Positions 37,688-42,805 of a stretch of 64,000 nucleotides of DNA are shown here, one piece after another. Position 1 is the first letter of the stretch; each line of letters opens with the position of its first letter. The notes under the pieces are model-generated. The model saw nothing but the letters and a program-made list of their open reading frames with translations. It did no database searches and was not told the origin of the DNA. A program made the position numbers and the translations under genes. Origin of the DNA: Candidatus Binataceae bacterium. GTDB taxonomy: Bacteria; Desulfobacterota; Binatia; Binatales; Binataceae. The DNA lies in assembly GCA_035531615.1 (NCBI GenBank), contig DATKSQ010000106.1, positions 5,389 to 69,388 on the forward strand, in the 5' to 3' direction.

Positions 37688-37725
37688 GTCATTCTCGCGC
37701 GTGGCTGTCGCGCAAGGAATCCCGG
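37688..37725. repeat. REP/MITE-like element, family B (single arm)
   Basis: gtcattctcgcgcgtggctgtcgcgcaaggaatcccgg. The same gtcattc..cgcgcg...ggaatcccgg unit occurs at 40181-40222, inverted at 40249-40286, and at 44533-44616. Confidence 0.75.
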
Positions 37726-38363: not shown

Positions 38364-39461
38364 TCAGATACTCAGATGGTACAGCTCGGCGACGTTGTCG
38401 TGCAGGATGTAGTTCTTTTCCTGCTCGCTCAGGTTGGCGGTGTGCTTTTTCAGGATTTCCTGCGACCACGGCCAGGTCGAGTCGCTATGCGGGAAATCGT
38501 TGGCCCACATCAGGCGGCGGATATTGCACATATCCTTCATCTGGAACGCCACCCAGTCGTCCTGGAAGGTCAAGTAGATATTCTCGCGGAAATACTCACT
38601 CGGCATCTTCGACAGCGCTCCCGCCGGCAGCCAGTAGCGATGCCGATCGTAGGCATGATCCATCCGGTACATATAATGCGGCGCCCATCCGGCGTCCGCC
38701 TCGACGCAGATCAGCTTGAGCTTCGGATTGCGCTCGAAGACTCCGCCCAAAATGAAAGTACCCATGATGTCCTGGCATCCGCGGATGATCGACAAAAAGC
38801 TGTTCAGCTTGGGACCGCGAGTTTTGAAGTTATCCTGGCTCGAAGTCAGGATATGGAAGCTCAGCGGCAGCTCGAGGTCGATCGCAGCCTGGTAGAACGG
38901 ATCGTAAATCGGGCTGTCGTAGTCCTCGACCTGTGGATTGCCGGGCATCATCACGCCGCGCAGGCCAAGCTCCTTCATTTTGCGCAGGTCGGCGATGCCT
39001 TCCTGGACCGAGCGCATCGCGGTCTGACCGCATCCGATCAGGCGCCGCGGATGAGTCGCGCAATACTCGGCGATCCACAGGTTGTAGGCGTCGAAGCAGG
39101 CCTTCTTGTAATCGAAATCGCGATGGTTGCAGAGCACCATCCCGACTGTGGGATAGATCACCTCGGCGGCGACGCCGTCGCGCTCCTGATCGGCCATCCG
39201 CGCGTTGGGGTCCCATCCGCCGCGATGCATCTCCTCGAACTTGACGCCGCCGATCCTGAGATCCTCGGGGTTGCGGCCCGCCGCGGCGGCCAGCCCGATA
39301 TTCACCGGGCGCGGAAAGTCCTTGACGATAAACACGTCGCCGAGCTTGTCGTCGCGCACCATATGCGGCGCCGAATCCTTGTATTTCGAATCGATCCGGT
39401 CCACGTAGGTCCCGGCGGGCTCAGTGATATGCGAATCGGCGGAGATGATCGGCTTTTGCAT
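38364..39461 (-). CDS. amidohydrolase-2 family (ACMSD-like metal-dependent hydrolase/decarboxylase)
   Basis: MQKPIISADSHITEP (metal-binding HxH-type N-terminus: SADSH), FHILTSS, VEADAGW and WANDFPHSDSTWP are typical of Amidohydro_2. Confidence 0.85.
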   Translation of the reverse strand: MQKPIISADSHITEPAGTYVDRIDSKYKDSAPHMVRDDKLGDVFIVKDFPRPVNIGLAAAAGRNPEDLRIGGVKFEEMHRGGWDPNARMADQERDGVAAEVIYPTVGMVLCNHRDFDYKKACFDAYNLWIAEYCATHPRRLIGCGQTAMRSVQEGIADLRKMKELGLRGVMMPGNPQVEDYDSPIYDPFYQAAIDLELPLSFHILTSSQDNFKTRGPKLNSFLSIIRGCQDIMGTFILGGVFERNPKLKLICVEADAGWAPHYMYRMDHAYDRHRYWLPAGALSKMPSEYFRENIYLTFQDDWVAFQMKDMCNIRRLMWANDFPHSDSTWPWSQEILKKHTANLSEQEKNYILHDNVAELYHLSI

Positions 39462-39550
39462 GATTGGTTCCTCGACGCGTGTCGACGCGGCATTCTATGG
39501 ACTCAGGCGCGAGCGGACTTCGCGTGCTCTGATCCGCTAATAGCCCAAGC
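39427..39550. repeat. direct duplication, copy 1 (amidohydrolase leader plus first 12 codons)
   Basis: Aligns by eye with 41453-41580, with roughly a dozen substitutions and one ~5-nt indel. It covers atatgcgaatcggcggagat...ggactcaggcgcg.gcggacttcgcgtgct.tgatccgctaata...caagc. Confidence 0.85.
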
Positions 39551-39562
39551 CATGCATCTTTT

Positions 39563-40180: not shown

Positions 40181-40286
40181 GTCATTCCCGCGCGCGTGTC
40201 CGGCGCGCGCGAGGAATCCCGGTTTGCAGCCGCGCGGCGGACCAAAAGACCGGGATTCTTCGCGCGGCAGCCACGCGCGAGAATGA
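40181..40286. repeat. REP/MITE-like element, family B (two inverted arms forming a long hairpin)
   Basis: gtcattcccgcgcgcgtgtccggcgcgcgcgaggaatcccggt ... accgggattcttcgcgcggcagccacgcgcgagaatgat. The arms are reverse complements of the same ~40-nt unit. Confidence 0.8.
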
Positions 40287-40434: not shown

Positions 40435-41487
40435 TTAGCTGATCCCCGAGGGTATTACGGAGCGGAAAAATGCTACCGCGCCTTCGACCGTCCGCTCATA
40501 CGGATGATTTCGTTTTGGGGCCGTCAAACTCATGTAGGCGGCGTACCGCCAGTCATCGCCCTCTCGGCGGAATAACTTGTAGCGGATGCCGTCGGAGACT
40601 ACAAAGCGGTCGCAGGACGGGAAGGACCGCGCGTAGCCTTTCGCTTGCTCCGGAGCATAGCGCATGCCGTCGAACAAACGCTTGGATTCGATGATCATGA
40701 CGGGCTTGCTGCCCTTCTTGTATGGAGTGTCGAACAGAACAACATCCATGTTGCCCCACTCGATTTTTACCCTCTGCTCTGCCCAGCCAAGAGACATCAG
40801 TAGGGGCACGATCAGAAAGGTCCGGATCTCGTGCTCCCCAACTTCGGCTCCATGGTCGCCATAATACTTTGCCATGCGCCGGAGGCGCCAAATGGTCTTC
40901 GCGATGAGTTCAGCGCGCTGTCCAGGCAGACCGTCAACAATCAGAGACTCTATTACCTCGTCAACCGTAATAGGCTCAGATTTGGCGGGGATCGGTTCCG
41001 AGGCGAGATCTCTACCGCTTGCCCAGATGCGTCTGATTTCGGTGAGTGCCTGTTCGTTGTAAACTCTCTTCAGGGTTCCTCGAGTCAGACCCGAAACTAA
41101 GGTCGTAGCATCAGGGACTTTCCAATGTACTTCTCGGCAATGCTGCAGATCCCATCCCTCCACGTCTTCGAACACTTCTTGATGGACGTAGTCGGACCTC
41201 ACCTCGCCGATAGCAACAATTTCCCACTGGTCGCTGCGCGGGCGCTTGAGGGCGACCAGATCGCCTACGCTGATTTTCTCGGCGAATGGTTCCAGGAACG
41301 AACGGTAGGCTCCGCTCTCGCTCTTATTATAGGCATCTTTGTTCGTAAAGTAGTTTCCCAAGGATCCAGGACCGACGAGAATGACTCCGAACCTCAAGAA
41401 TACATCTGCATAGTCGCGGCTGCCGTCTCCTGCCGCCACCTGCCAGATGTTAATATGCGAATCGGCGGAGATAATCGGCTCTTGCAT
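40435..41487 (-). CDS. PD-(D/E)xK nuclease (type I restriction R-subunit N-terminal, HSDR_N-like) with an uncharacterised N-terminal beta-rich domain; chimeric 5-prime end
   Basis: C-terminal half: EHEIRTFLIVPLLMSLGWAEQRVKIEWGNMDVVLFDTPYKKGSKPVMIIESKRL...EQAKGYARSF...VVSDGIRYKLF, giving D ... E-x-K, then Q..Y, then the (T/S)DG layout of HSDR_N. The first 12 codons (MQEPIISADSHI) duplicate the amidohydrolase start. The gene is AT-richer than the host genes. Confidence 0.7.
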   Translation of the reverse strand: MQEPIISADSHINIWQVAAGDGSRDYADVFLRFGVILVGPGSLGNYFTNKDAYNKSESGAYRSFLEPFAEKISVGDLVALKRPRSDQWEIVAIGEVRSDYVHQEVFEDVEGWDLQHCREVHWKVPDATTLVSGLTRGTLKRVYNEQALTEIRRIWASGRDLASEPIPAKSEPITVDEVIESLIVDGLPGQRAELIAKTIWRLRRMAKYYGDHGAEVGEHEIRTFLIVPLLMSLGWAEQRVKIEWGNMDVVLFDTPYKKGSKPVMIIESKRLFDGMRYAPEQAKGYARSFPSCDRFVVSDGIRYKLFRREGDDWRYAAYMSLTAPKRNHPYERTVEGAVAFFRSVIPSGIS

Positions 41488-41580
41488 GAATGGTTGCTCG
41501 ACTGTCTCAACGCGGCATCATATCATATGGACTCAGGCGCGGGCGGACTTCGCGTGCTTTGATCCGCTAATATCTCAAGC
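41453..41580. repeat. direct duplication, copy 2
   Basis: See copy 1 at 39427-39550. Here it supplies the leader and start codon of the nuclease ORF. Confidence 0.85.
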
Positions 41581-41606
41581 TGCGCTTTTTTGACAGAGAC
41601 CGGCGG

Positions 41607-42086
41607 TCATTGACCCGCCTGCTCGGCGGCAAATTTCTGGAGACTTGCGTAATTGTGGATGCCTCTCTTGCAGTTGCGCTTACCAAGAATCGTCCCGTCA
41701 ACGCGCTGCTGTAAGTATTCCACCAGCTCATTAAATCGCGTCTGCGGGATAAAGTACGTGGGCGCCTTGAATTCACGCTCGATGTTCTTGAAAATAACCG
41801 CGTAGCTGAATCGAGCGGGGTTACGGCCAAACCCCGCGTCAGCCTCGCGGAAACGGTGATAGCGTTCGACCAGATATTTGACGTAGTTGCGCTGCAAGAG
41901 GTCGCTTCCGATCGAACCGAGGGGATATTCGGATGGACGACTGGAGCGTCGGCCGCGAAGAACCTGGTTGATCGTGGTGGAACCGGTGTGCACGTCACCA
42001 TGAATCGTACTGCCCGCAATCGACGTGACATTTGCGCCGTTGGTGATCGTGCTCTTTTCCGCGCGGGTTGAAATGCCGTGTTTCAT
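41607..42086 (-). CDS. hypothetical protein (159 aa), partner of the DUF4062/TIR-like gene
   Basis: The ATG at 42086 overlaps the upstream stop (ATGA). It has a Gly/Ser/Thr-rich N-terminus (ITNGANVTSIAGSTIHGDVHTGSTTIN) and a C-terminal domain YVKYLVERYHRF...FSYAVIFKNIEREF...FNELVEYLQQRVDGT. I recognise no family. Confidence 0.6.
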   Translation of the reverse strand: MKHGISTRAEKSTITNGANVTSIAGSTIHGDVHTGSTTINQVLRGRRSSRPSEYPLGSIGSDLLQRNYVKYLVERYHRFREADAGFGRNPARFSYAVIFKNIEREFKAPTYFIPQTRFNELVEYLQQRVDGTILGKRNCKRGIHNYASLQKFAAEQAGQ

Positions 42087-42616
42087 TGCTTCTTCCTCGC
42101 GAGTGCAACGACTTCGCGCATGACGAATGCCAGATCCTTTCTCACCGTCGCTTCGAATTCCTTCAGACCAGGATACGTCCCATAAAGCGCGTTCTTTCCC
42201 AACTGCTGTCTGAACTGTTCCATCCTGGCGTTTTCACGCGAATCAGGCCGTCGCCTTTCCGGCCCAAGGCGCTGTGAAAAGTATACCATCACCTTCTTGC
42301 CCCGTCTGCGGGCGCGCTCGATTTCCTCCACAGTTCCAGATTCGGCTTTCCCCGTCGGGCTTCCGAGGCGCCGCCAGAAGATCGCGATCACAATGTCCGC
42401 ACGATCGGCAAATTGGCGATTGAGCAACGCTTGAGGCCGTCTGCCAGCGTCCGGGTGCGCATGTGTTCGCCAGTTCATGAGCTCCACGCGCGCTCGCACT
42501 GCGTCGCCATGCTGCACGTTCCAATCATTGATCGCACCGGCTAAGAGGGTGTGCTCCTCCATTATGTCCGAGGGAGCGGCCAGCAGGATTCGGAAAAGCT
42601 GAATTGTCTCGGGCAT
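42083..42616 (-). CDS. DUF4062 / TIR-like / nucleoside-2-deoxyribosyltransferase-like Rossmannoid domain protein
   Basis: The ORF is open to the TTG at 42637, but I use the ATG at 42616 (MPETIQLFRILLAAPSD...). The core is DRADIVIAIFWRRLGSPTGKAESGTVEEIERARRRGKKVMVYF: strand, loop, SGT-x-E-E helix, then GK-x-V strand. The family call is from memory and unverified. Confidence 0.55.
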   Translation of the reverse strand: MPETIQLFRILLAAPSDIMEEHTLLAGAINDWNVQHGDAVRARVELMNWRTHAHPDAGRRPQALLNRQFADRADIVIAIFWRRLGSPTGKAESGTVEEIERARRRGKKVMVYFSQRLGPERRRPDSRENARMEQFRQQLGKNALYGTYPGLKEFEATVRKDLAFVMREVVALARKKQ

Positions 42617-42805
42617 CGGGCAGGAACCTACACGCAACCGCCCTGACGCCGCAATCCGCTCGCGGCATTTCGCGGGTCACGGGGGCGGCTGCGGGCTTGT
42701 CGCGGAATCCCGATTCGTGGAATAAGATGAGGTTATGTCCCGGGCGTCGATGAGCACGGCGCGGCGCCCGATTCTTCACCAGTCCCGGATGGCCACGGAG
42801 GCTTT

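Follow-up and report, generated by a model that had tools for sequence, protein, structure and literature searches.

A 64,000-nucleotide stretch of a Candidatus Binataceae genome (contig DATKSQ010000106.1, positions 5,389 to 69,388; hereafter the window) carries, on its minus strand, two small overlapping genes that we call P1 and P2. We find that P1 and P2 are inherited together well beyond this genome, and we take them, with moderate confidence, to be a two-gene anti-phage conflict cassette in which an effector core and an auxiliary-domain protein are split between adjacent genes. On its sequence, P1 is best described as a divergent DUF4062/NDT-like, TIR-like putative N-glycosidase (NDT, nucleoside 2-deoxyribosyltransferase); that is, as a divergent relative of the DUF4062 family PF13271 and not as a clean member of it. 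Most of P2 is a predicted helical domain, P2C, which we propose here, from its sequence relationships, as a new effector-associated domain family whose effector is either encoded immediately 5′ or fused. DUF4062-type defense is already known; what is new is the P2C family and its use in trans.

Co-inheritance and mobility of the P1-P2 pair

The features of the pair, all on the minus strand of the window, are as follows:

42083..42616, minus strand: P1 gene, 177 aa plus stop; open reading frame (ORF) with ATG at 42616 and stop at 42085-42083
41607..42086, minus strand: P2 gene, 159 aa plus stop; ORF with ATG at 42086 and stop at 41609-41607
42083..42086, minus strand: ATGA start/stop overlap, with the P2 start on the P1 stop; read from the sequence
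42317..42340, minus strand: codons of the putative catalytic motif of P1, S93-G-T-V96-E97-E98-I-E100; from conservation in the P1 family
41937..42086, minus strand: P2 residues 1-50, Gly/Ser/Thr/Asn/Val-rich and predicted to be disordered; from composition and the predicted local-distance difference test (pLDDT)
41610..41936, minus strand: P2 residues 51-159, the five-helix domain P2C; from predicted structure and profile
42617..42661, minus strand: conserved leader of about 45 nt 5′ of P1, the 5′ limit of the cassette; from the alignment of cassette DNA

The pairing of P1 with P2 is far above chance. We found 270 homologues of P2. P1 lies directly 5′ of P2 at 49 of the 63 metagenome loci that could be scored, and directly 5′ on the same strand at about 18 of the 24 scorable genome loci. 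Look-ups started from P1 gave the same picture, with a 159- to 160-aa gene overlapping P1 by 4 nt in three of three cases. Co-occurrence of the homologues elsewhere had been named beforehand as the test that could refute a module, and all three sets of counts strongly support the module. Furthermore, the pairwise identities of P1 and of P2 are tightly correlated across 18 loci (r = 0.95). The ATGA junction is present in all seven intact Binataceae cassettes checked; in Verrucomicrobiota, Planctomycetota, and Lentisphaerota the junction is a spacer of 4 to 9 nt. The first-pass annotation, made from the letters of the window, had read this locus as two coupled minus-strand ORFs overlapping by ATGA at 42083-42086, and its coordinates and quoted peptides were all verified in the sequence.

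Both genes are under purifying selection. Among the seven Binataceae cassettes, the median ratio of nonsynonymous to synonymous substitution rates (dN/dS) is 0.16 for P1 and likewise 0.16 for P2, which marks the two as real genes; even across its first 50 codons, which are of low complexity, P2 has a dN/dS of 0.20. The P1 ORF can also be read from a TTG at 42637. The ATG that we use (MPETIQ...) is the start kept in all homologues, those of other phyla included. Scans around the cassette found neither a sigma-70-like promoter nor an intrinsic terminator on the coding (minus) strand, and the conserved leader probably holds the ribosome-binding region. An identical P1 is on record in a Candidatus Binataceae metagenome-assembled genome (MAG; NCBI VMV27_13050), and the contig with this locus was found in three metagenome assemblies.

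The P1/P2 cassette is horizontally mobile and foreign in composition. Its genes had been noted at first pass as richer in A+T than the host genes, and the figures agree: GC content is 58% for P1 and 55% for P2 against 63.9% for the window, and GC at third codon positions (GC3) is about 66% against 75 to 85% in the flanking amidohydrolase, radical-SAM, RDD, and SpoIIM genes. The cassette, about 1.1 kb long, occupies at least six unrelated neighborhoods within Binataceae. DNA homology between cassettes starts about 30 to 60 nt before the P1 ATG and stops about 10 nt past the P2 stop. Its close family (at least 49% identity) extends over Binatota, Verrucomicrobiota, Planctomycetota, Lentisphaerota, and Acidobacteriota. 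Some cassettes lie near insertion sequence (IS) elements, integrases, a patatin gene, a HEPN-MNT pair, or DNA methylases, and the mobile-element genes at individual loci include rve_3 with HTH_Tnp_1, HTH_17, and a tyrosine integrase by a tRNA-Glu gene. Among the loci compared, no third neighboring gene family recurs beside the cassettes.

Decay of the pair is one-sided. P1 is deleted, frameshifted, or absent beside an intact P2 at 14 of the 63 metagenome loci and at about six genome loci; an intact P1 beside a broken P2 was never seen among the metagenome and genome loci surveyed. P1 is frameshifted at five loci (L026, L030, L059, L082, and L083), truncated at three (L014, L031, and L120), and missing at L010 and eight metagenome loci. 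At L004 (7852-8004), and likewise at L005, L006, L067, and L068, an in-frame internal deletion of P1 leaves a 50-aa ORF, in which the N-terminal ~38 aa are joined to the C-terminal ~10 aa and the ATGA overlap with an intact P2 is kept. This loss of P1 with retention of P2 suggests that P1 is harmful without P2. The L004 cassette also has on either side a 24-bp direct repeat, which corresponds to the 3′ end of the short-chain dehydrogenase (SDR) gene upstream. A flanking direct repeat or target-site duplication was considered as a general signature of the cassette and rejected, because neither the window nor the other loci have an exact repeat of this sort.

Several insertion sites are of interest in their own right. 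At loci L133/L134, L135, L136-L139, L004, and L009, the cassette stands directly 3′ of an adh_short (short-chain dehydrogenase) gene in Binataceae contexts that otherwise differ, one of these sites following an ftsQAZ cluster and another following TauE/DUF1634. What separates P2 from HTH_17 at the TauE site varies by genome: no cargo at all, a TetR gene, or a methyltransferase with two luciferase-like genes and TetR. The adh_short-associated site may be an insertion hot spot. At L010 (2453-6067), a Prok-JAB/MPN gene precedes, by 110 nt, a solo P2 with no P1 homologue. About 1.7 kb from this P2, a tyrosine integrase gene directly adjoins tRNA-Glu, an arrangement that suggests an integrative island.

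The P1 core and the P2C domain

DUF4062 is a TIR-like NADase that converts NAD+ to adenosine diphosphate ribose (ADPR) and nicotinamide (10.64898/2026.05.01.722283, 10.64898/2026.06.25.731849, 10.64898/2026.09.04.749371). According to these three 2026 bioRxiv preprints, DUF4062 NADases act by abortive infection in the systems Swarozyc, PsAvs2, Vulcan, Vesta, and Evangelion, and the catalytic Glu sits in an acidic-S-x-T-E motif (KpSwz E97, Eva01 E87, and PsAvs2 E108). In the Swarozyc protein KpSwz, the DUF4062 domain is followed by a C-terminal auxiliary region (AUX) that is needed for defense and binds the phage portal, which is the trigger (PDB 10wc, 11cq, and 11cv; 10.64898/2026.05.01.722283). 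Evangelion proteins combine a DUF4062 core with a short C-terminal AUX; for one of them, Eva01, the proposed cue is a DNA intermediate of phage replication or recombination (10.64898/2026.06.25.731849).

Residues 6-170 of P1 match positions 3-171 of the 906-position, single-gene profile of the PADLOC defense candidate PDC-S60 (E = 5.8e-27); the alignment is confined to these positions and thus falls short of a full-length match. P1 homologues at about 50% identity carry precomputed PF13271 matches, some of them flagged weak, and two fusion proteins match PF13271 (best E 5.8e-4). A Pfam search gave no TIR match for P1, and JGI names two of its homologues “nucleoside 2-deoxyribosyltransferase.” In the AF2 model of P1 (pLDDT 81.9), five strands (6-13, 42-48, 75-80, 108-114, and 144-148) alternate with helices. 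For this model Foldseek returned many generic flavodoxin-like folds, with NDT 7o62 and TIR domains (L6, RUN1, and SARM1) in their midst, and so did not discriminate between TIR, NDT, and DUF4062. The first-pass placement of P1 in a DUF4062/TIR/NDT-like group thus holds at the level of the superfamily, on the strength of the PDC-S60 match, the sub-threshold Pfam scores, the PF13271 flags, and the five-strand model.

The P1 family has a well-conserved candidate active site. Invariant residues include P15, D17, W32, W49, Q62, Q68, D74, G85, S93-G-T95, E97, E98, and I99, and the motif SGT[V/E/I/A]EE[ILVF] is found in 123 of 125 P1-family proteins. Among these 123, the residue after the Thr (T+1) is mostly Val (97 proteins), with Glu in 22, Ile in three, and Ala in one; the positions of E97 and E98 are Glu in all of them. 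KpSwz is the best PDB sequence match of the P1 profile, at only E = 0.27, and in the HMMER alignment to it (PDB 10wc) the catalytic Glu E97 of its S-F-T-E motif falls opposite V96 of P1. A Glu after SGT had been singled out at first pass as the likely catalytic residue. In the HMMER alignment the canonical DUF4062 catalytic position falls on V96 instead, and the invariant Glu residues are E97 and E98. The E98-x3-A-x3-G-K arrangement of P1 resembles the spacing at the catalytic Glu of NDT enzymes. Judged by sequence, the P1 branch would be a divergent DUF4062 with its Glu register shifted toward the NDT position, and by analogy NAD+ is most likely its substrate.

P2 matches no model in Pfam, PADLOC, or NCBIfam. 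In its predicted structure, residues 1-46 have a pLDDT below 50, and residues 55-159 form a confident five-helix domain (pLDDT 85-98), a soluble helical bundle with predicted helices at 63-84, 95-106, 115-131, 133-141, and 149-158. Foldseek found no matching fold for P2C in the PDB (best E = 1.8), and against PDB sequences, KpSwz included, the P2 profile gave nothing at E ≤ 10. A diverse P2C profile returned only noise from the PDB sequences (unrelated proteins, best E = 0.24). An identity as a death-like or effector-associated domain (EAD) adaptor was considered for P2C and found no support among PDB folds. The initial judgment that the partner of P1 could not be placed in any family is therefore confirmed for Pfam, PADLOC, NCBIfam, and the PDB. 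The domain is about 105 aa long and basic (isoelectric point, pI, 9.6), and its conserved motifs are rich in Arg, Lys, and Asn (YPxGSIG...RNY..YL..RY and RID.T.LGK.N...G..NY; the window P2 seeded the profile).

P2C is widespread and has many partners, a feature that the first-pass annotation missed, direct fusions to P1-like domains included. A profile search of 1.84 billion representatives (50% clustering) found 445 relatives; the diverse P2C alignment, used in a word-index search, gave only 38 proteins, mainly close relatives. In 88 longer relatives, P2C stands C-terminal to other domains. These are HNH (in 36 or more, with HNH_2 in 13 and HNH_5 in 12), TIR_2 (in 10), TIR (in 6), ThsB_TIR (in 3), SEFIR, Mrr, DUF2321-TIR, HetE-N, a nucleotide cyclase, and an Eco57I-type methylase. 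Five representatives of 320 to 354 aa (P0272, P0285, P0299, P0327, and P0352) join a P1-like domain, through a low-complexity linker, to P2C, and their P1 part is matched at E = 1e-52 to 1e-61. The N-terminal segment of P2 corresponds to the low-complexity linkers of these five proteins and of an HNH fusion at L040. In P2 itself, the pattern of residues 1-50 is one of hydrophobics alternating with Gly-Asn, and from this pattern the segment might form beta structure upon oligomerization; an amyloid-type signaling motif was considered for this Gly/Asn/Val-rich stretch but not adopted.

The PADLOC alignments that we inspected in P2C fusions cover the effector part only, which argues that P2C is an unannotated module partnering interchangeable effectors. 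Coverage of P2C by the PADLOC models PDC-S66 or PDC-M68A was considered and rejected, because the inspected alignments take in only the TIR or HNH part. Neither P2 nor the DUF4062-P2C fusions match these two models, and PDC-M68A is matched by none of 20 individually scanned proteins.

Two further loci bear on how P2C proteins are cataloged. The database entry P0403, of 102 aa, stems from a gene call that is cut short: at L040 (2066-2902) the complete ORF encodes a 278-aa HNH-linker-P2C protein, and some “solo P2C” entries in databases may thus be fusions. At L038 (5555-6426), a distant solo P2C of 141 aa begins 5 nt after a gene for a 146-aa coiled-coil-like protein of no family, in a region of many small ORFs with a mobile-element- or phage-like look. 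On its gene layout, L038 could be another split arrangement.

P1-like cores also occur with partners other than P2C. Nine viral or proviral contigs of IMG/VR (L042-L050) encode P1-like “SGTVEEIE” cores, at 28 to 40% identity, in single genes of 279 to 463 aa whose C-terminal regions are of three kinds: winged-helix-like, S-adenosylmethionine (SAM)-methyltransferase-like, and beta-rich. Overall, P1-like cores combine with at least four different C-terminal partners. The P1-like family has the “conserved core, variable AUX” layout known from Swarozyc and Evangelion, and the window pair is a split form of it.

Proposed function and alternative explanations

We propose that P1 and P2, being translationally coupled, are made in fixed stoichiometry and form a complex equivalent to their single-chain relatives. 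P2C would sense an infection cue, control the assembly of P1, or do both. In healthy cells P2 would hold P1 inactive; infection would release or assemble P1, which would then cleave NAD+ or a related nucleotide, so that the infected cell is arrested. By analogy with the DUF4062 systems, abortive-infection defense through NAD+ or nucleotide depletion is thus the most likely function of the cassette. We infer here the enzymatic activity and substrate of P1, its interaction with P2, the trigger, and the defense phenotype.

Among known systems, Swarozyc and Evangelion work along the same lines as the pair, with a DUF4062-type core and an auxiliary region. The P1 model shares the alpha/beta topology of the KpSwz core (five strands and five helices), the core-plus-auxiliary logic is the same, and the P1-P2C fusions (320 to 354 aa) are close in length to KpSwz (326 aa). 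However, Swarozyc is one gene, whereas core and auxiliary part are two coupled genes in the window; P2C has no sequence similarity to any PDB chain, KpSwz included; and the Glu register differs (S-F-T-E97 in KpSwz and S-G-T-V96-E97-E98 in P1). Evangelion (Eva01-04) resembles the window pair in having a conserved core with a variable, co-evolving AUX, as the correlated identities of P1 and P2 also indicate, and in being carried on mobile DNA. Evangelion differs in being a single gene, found on plasmids and mobile elements of Firmicutes and Proteobacteria (10.64898/2026.06.25.731849). Its motif is acidic-S-Y-T-E87-Y88, together with F11 and Q/W/E, whereas P1 has V-E-E-I and no E-Y. Furthermore, P1 falls below the PF13271 threshold, and P2 is a separate protein whose domain is shared with HNH, TIR, and SEFIR effectors. 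The single-chain P2C relatives share with Evangelion an architecture class, but not a family.

Other known systems differ as well. Vesta is likewise a two-gene operon around a small DUF4062-type protein, but its partner VstB is an alkaline phosphatase dispensable for defense, and VstA has its own C-terminal domain (10.64898/2026.09.04.749371). The partner in the window, in contrast, is a predicted non-enzymatic helical domain that takes the place of the C-terminal domain of single-chain relatives. We therefore do not regard the window pair as a Vesta system, because P2 has no phosphatase or other Pfam match and is modeled as a small helical bundle. The annotated relative nearest to P1, and to the P1 part of the fusions, is the N-terminal ~171 positions of PDC-S60; nothing in the window corresponds to the other ~735 profile positions, which by analogy with NIR-NLR proteins presumably form an NTPase/repeat sensor. 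With the NDT/TIR superfamily (Pfam clans CL0498 and CL0173), P1 shares the fold class and a Glu that opens the helix following strand 3, but the Pfam scores are sub-threshold and no salvage-pathway context was found at the loci. The description of the pair as an undescribed module needs qualification: PADLOC does not name the pair, but DUF4062 defense itself is described in the three 2026 preprints.

DUF4062 (NIR) was recognized only in 2026 as a TIR-like NADase common to bacterial immunity and human TEP1. In the characterized bacterial DUF4062 systems, the sensing region is on the same polypeptide, except in Vesta with its dispensable partner. An effector and an auxiliary part encoded by split genes would thus be a natural system in which to separate sensing from catalysis. 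P2C, which occurs in hundreds of protein clusters, is a candidate general sensor or adaptor that neither Pfam, PADLOC, nor DefenseFinder-type annotation includes. Its inclusion in defense-finding profiles would flag many “hypothetical” genes in little-studied phyla of soil, among them Binatota, Verrucomicrobiota, Planctomycetota, and Acidobacteriota.

Several observations weigh against a defensive role built on a DUF4062-type effector. P1 scores below the Pfam gathering thresholds for both DUF4062 (PF13271; 15.0 versus 24.7 bits, E = 0.028) and NDT (PF05014; 15.5 versus 28.8 bits, E = 0.02), and the Foldseek matches of its model are non-specific. In the window P1, Val occupies T+1, where DUF4062 proteins canonically have the catalytic Glu, so activity and substrate could differ. 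The neighbors of the cassettes are mostly housekeeping genes: only a minority of the 137 neighboring ORFs, in 14 contexts, match defense models. The defense-type neighbors are methyltransferases, mad2-like, Mrr, and NA-iREase1 genes, with the patatin gene and the HEPN-MNT pair adjoining the fusion P0272. The close P2 family has no relatives on the viral contigs searched, a scan for which the diverse P2C alignment was too variable. Finally, the loci were found through P2, so that the asymmetry of decay comes partly from sampling, and some P1 frameshifts may be errors of MAG assembly. The lack of P2 relatives on the viral contigs searched led us to reject P2 as a phage protein.

A second reading, which overlaps with the defense model and which we regard as possible but the less probable of the two, is a nucleic-acid-directed system. 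P2C would here be a DNA-binding domain or sensor of DNA state, perhaps sensitive to methylation. P1 and P2 together would form a DNA-sensing module that triggers NAD+ depletion or that attacks DNA or nucleotides as an NDT-like base or nucleotide glycosidase, and the HNH-P2C and Mrr-P2C proteins would be restriction-like nucleases. Cassettes linked to a methyltransferase would resemble a restriction-modification system whose nuclease is replaced by the NADase pair. The lead comes from a homologous N6_N4 DNA methyltransferase (MTase) of 511 to 639 aa that matches the PADLOC MTase_II/III models at about 1e-60. Of the 35 non-Binataceae cassettes with enough upstream sequence, 13 carry its gene upstream in the same orientation. 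The gap is at most 120 nt in 5 of those 13, and also at L030; at the fusion P0299, the MTase gene lies 15 nt upstream. The MTase-linked loci are L015, L016, L018, L029, L030, L052, L092, L093, L098, L100, L109, L110, L115, and L119, and at some of them an unrelated ORF of 222 to 278 aa stands between the MTase gene and P1 (ORF X in L015 and L016).

Nucleases, moreover, account for most P2C fusions: at least 36 of the 88 carry HNH, and Mrr adds to these. An Eco57I-type MTase is the partner in one fusion, and P2C is basic, with its Arg/Lys/Asn-rich conserved motifs. The spacing around E98 of P1 also resembles that of NDT. DNA sensing has a precedent in the proposal for Eva01 (10.64898/2026.06.25.731849). 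The association with the MTase, the nuclease-rich partners, and the pI of 9.6 together keep a DNA-sensing role for P2C alive. On the other hand, the MTase is present in none of 22 Binataceae-type cassettes, the window included. Because the genes of these cassettes are nonetheless under purifying selection, the pair works without it. Nor does P2C have any fold likeness to the DNA-binding domains of the PDB. With ORF X intervening in L015 and L016, the MTase could belong to a neighboring restriction-modification (R-M) system in a defense islet, and the MTase genes of L018, L092, L110, and L033 are themselves interrupted or incomplete.

A bolder reading is somewhat less probable. P2C would here be a widespread trigger sensor not recognized before, perhaps of DNA or its methylation, that drives HNH, TIR, SEFIR, Mrr, and DUF4062 effectors in cis or, as in the window, in trans from its own translationally coupled gene. 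The MTase-P1-P2 operons found in Verrucomicrobiota and Planctomycetota would be R-M-like, with NAD+ depletion in place of DNA cleavage as the restriction arm, and the Binataceae cassette would be a modification-independent derivative of them.

We consider it unlikely that the pair is a plain toxin-antitoxin addiction module, with P1 as the toxin and P2 as an antitoxin that together stabilize the DNA that carries them, without phage sensing. Two genes in a small operon, overlapping by 4 nt, would suit such a module, as would the decay of P1 beside a retained P2, which recalls orphan antitoxins. The solo P2 near an integrase and tRNA-Glu at L010, and the toxin-antitoxin-like DUF4160/DUF2442 pair that adjoins the cassette in the window, point the same way. 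However, while the gene overlap and asymmetric decay are compatible with a type II system, the toxin-first order and the fused versions are atypical for that class, with its labile antitoxins. The presence of P2C in cis to HNH, TIR, SEFIR, and Mrr domains fits a sensor or regulator better than a specific antitoxin, and neither the Pfam nor the PDB fold search recognized a DNA-binding autoregulatory domain in P2. Addiction and defense are in any case compatible, since many abortive-infection systems are toxin-antitoxin-like.

It is very improbable that P1 serves housekeeping nucleoside metabolism as an NDT/LOG-like salvage enzyme with a structural partner: its best Pfam match is NDT (E = 0.02), JGI labels two homologues as such, and most loci have metabolic neighbors, but the patchy distribution over phyla, variable contexts, cassette-limited homology, low GC3, and frequent decay all argue otherwise, as do a closest profile that is the effector domain of a defense candidate and a partner domain common to HNH, TIR, and SEFIR effectors.

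Surroundings of the cassette in the window

Beside the cassette lies a gene of 350 aa (40435-41487), which had been taken for a restriction-type nuclease. Its only matches to HSDR_N are sub-threshold (E = 0.011), and it carries a precomputed DUF8426 tag, which qualifies the nuclease assignment. This gene was considered as a third component of the module and rejected: tblastn finds only copies of the same contig, and never a copy beside other cassettes. The DUF4160/DUF2442 pair that was reported next to the module is confirmed by Pfam matches. It, too, was rejected as a part of the module, as it was not found beside any other cassette.

Of the MITE-like repeats (MITE, miniature inverted-repeat transposable element) described in this region, repeats do exist, but they amount to only two inverted copies of one element in the window. 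The element is 37 nt long and GC-rich, and its copies (37689-37725 and 40250-40286) differ by three mismatches, with no such match expected by chance. One copy lies in the non-coding region at 37.0 to 38.3 kb, and the other falls between the genes for DUF4160 and the 350-aa protein.

A longer direct repeat of about 135 bp (39427-39561 and 41453-41591; 86 to 92% identical) consists of the upstream region and the first ~12 codons of an Amidohydro_2 gene (38364-39461). Because the repeat copies that start, the 350-aa ORF opens with MQEPIISADSHI, taken from the amidohydrolase start MQKPIISADSHI. The two copies bracket a low-GC3 segment of about 2 kb that holds the 350-aa DUF8426 gene and the DUF4160/DUF2442 pair. 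This segment, which adjoins P1/P2, has the appearance of an insertion of some age that left a long target duplication.

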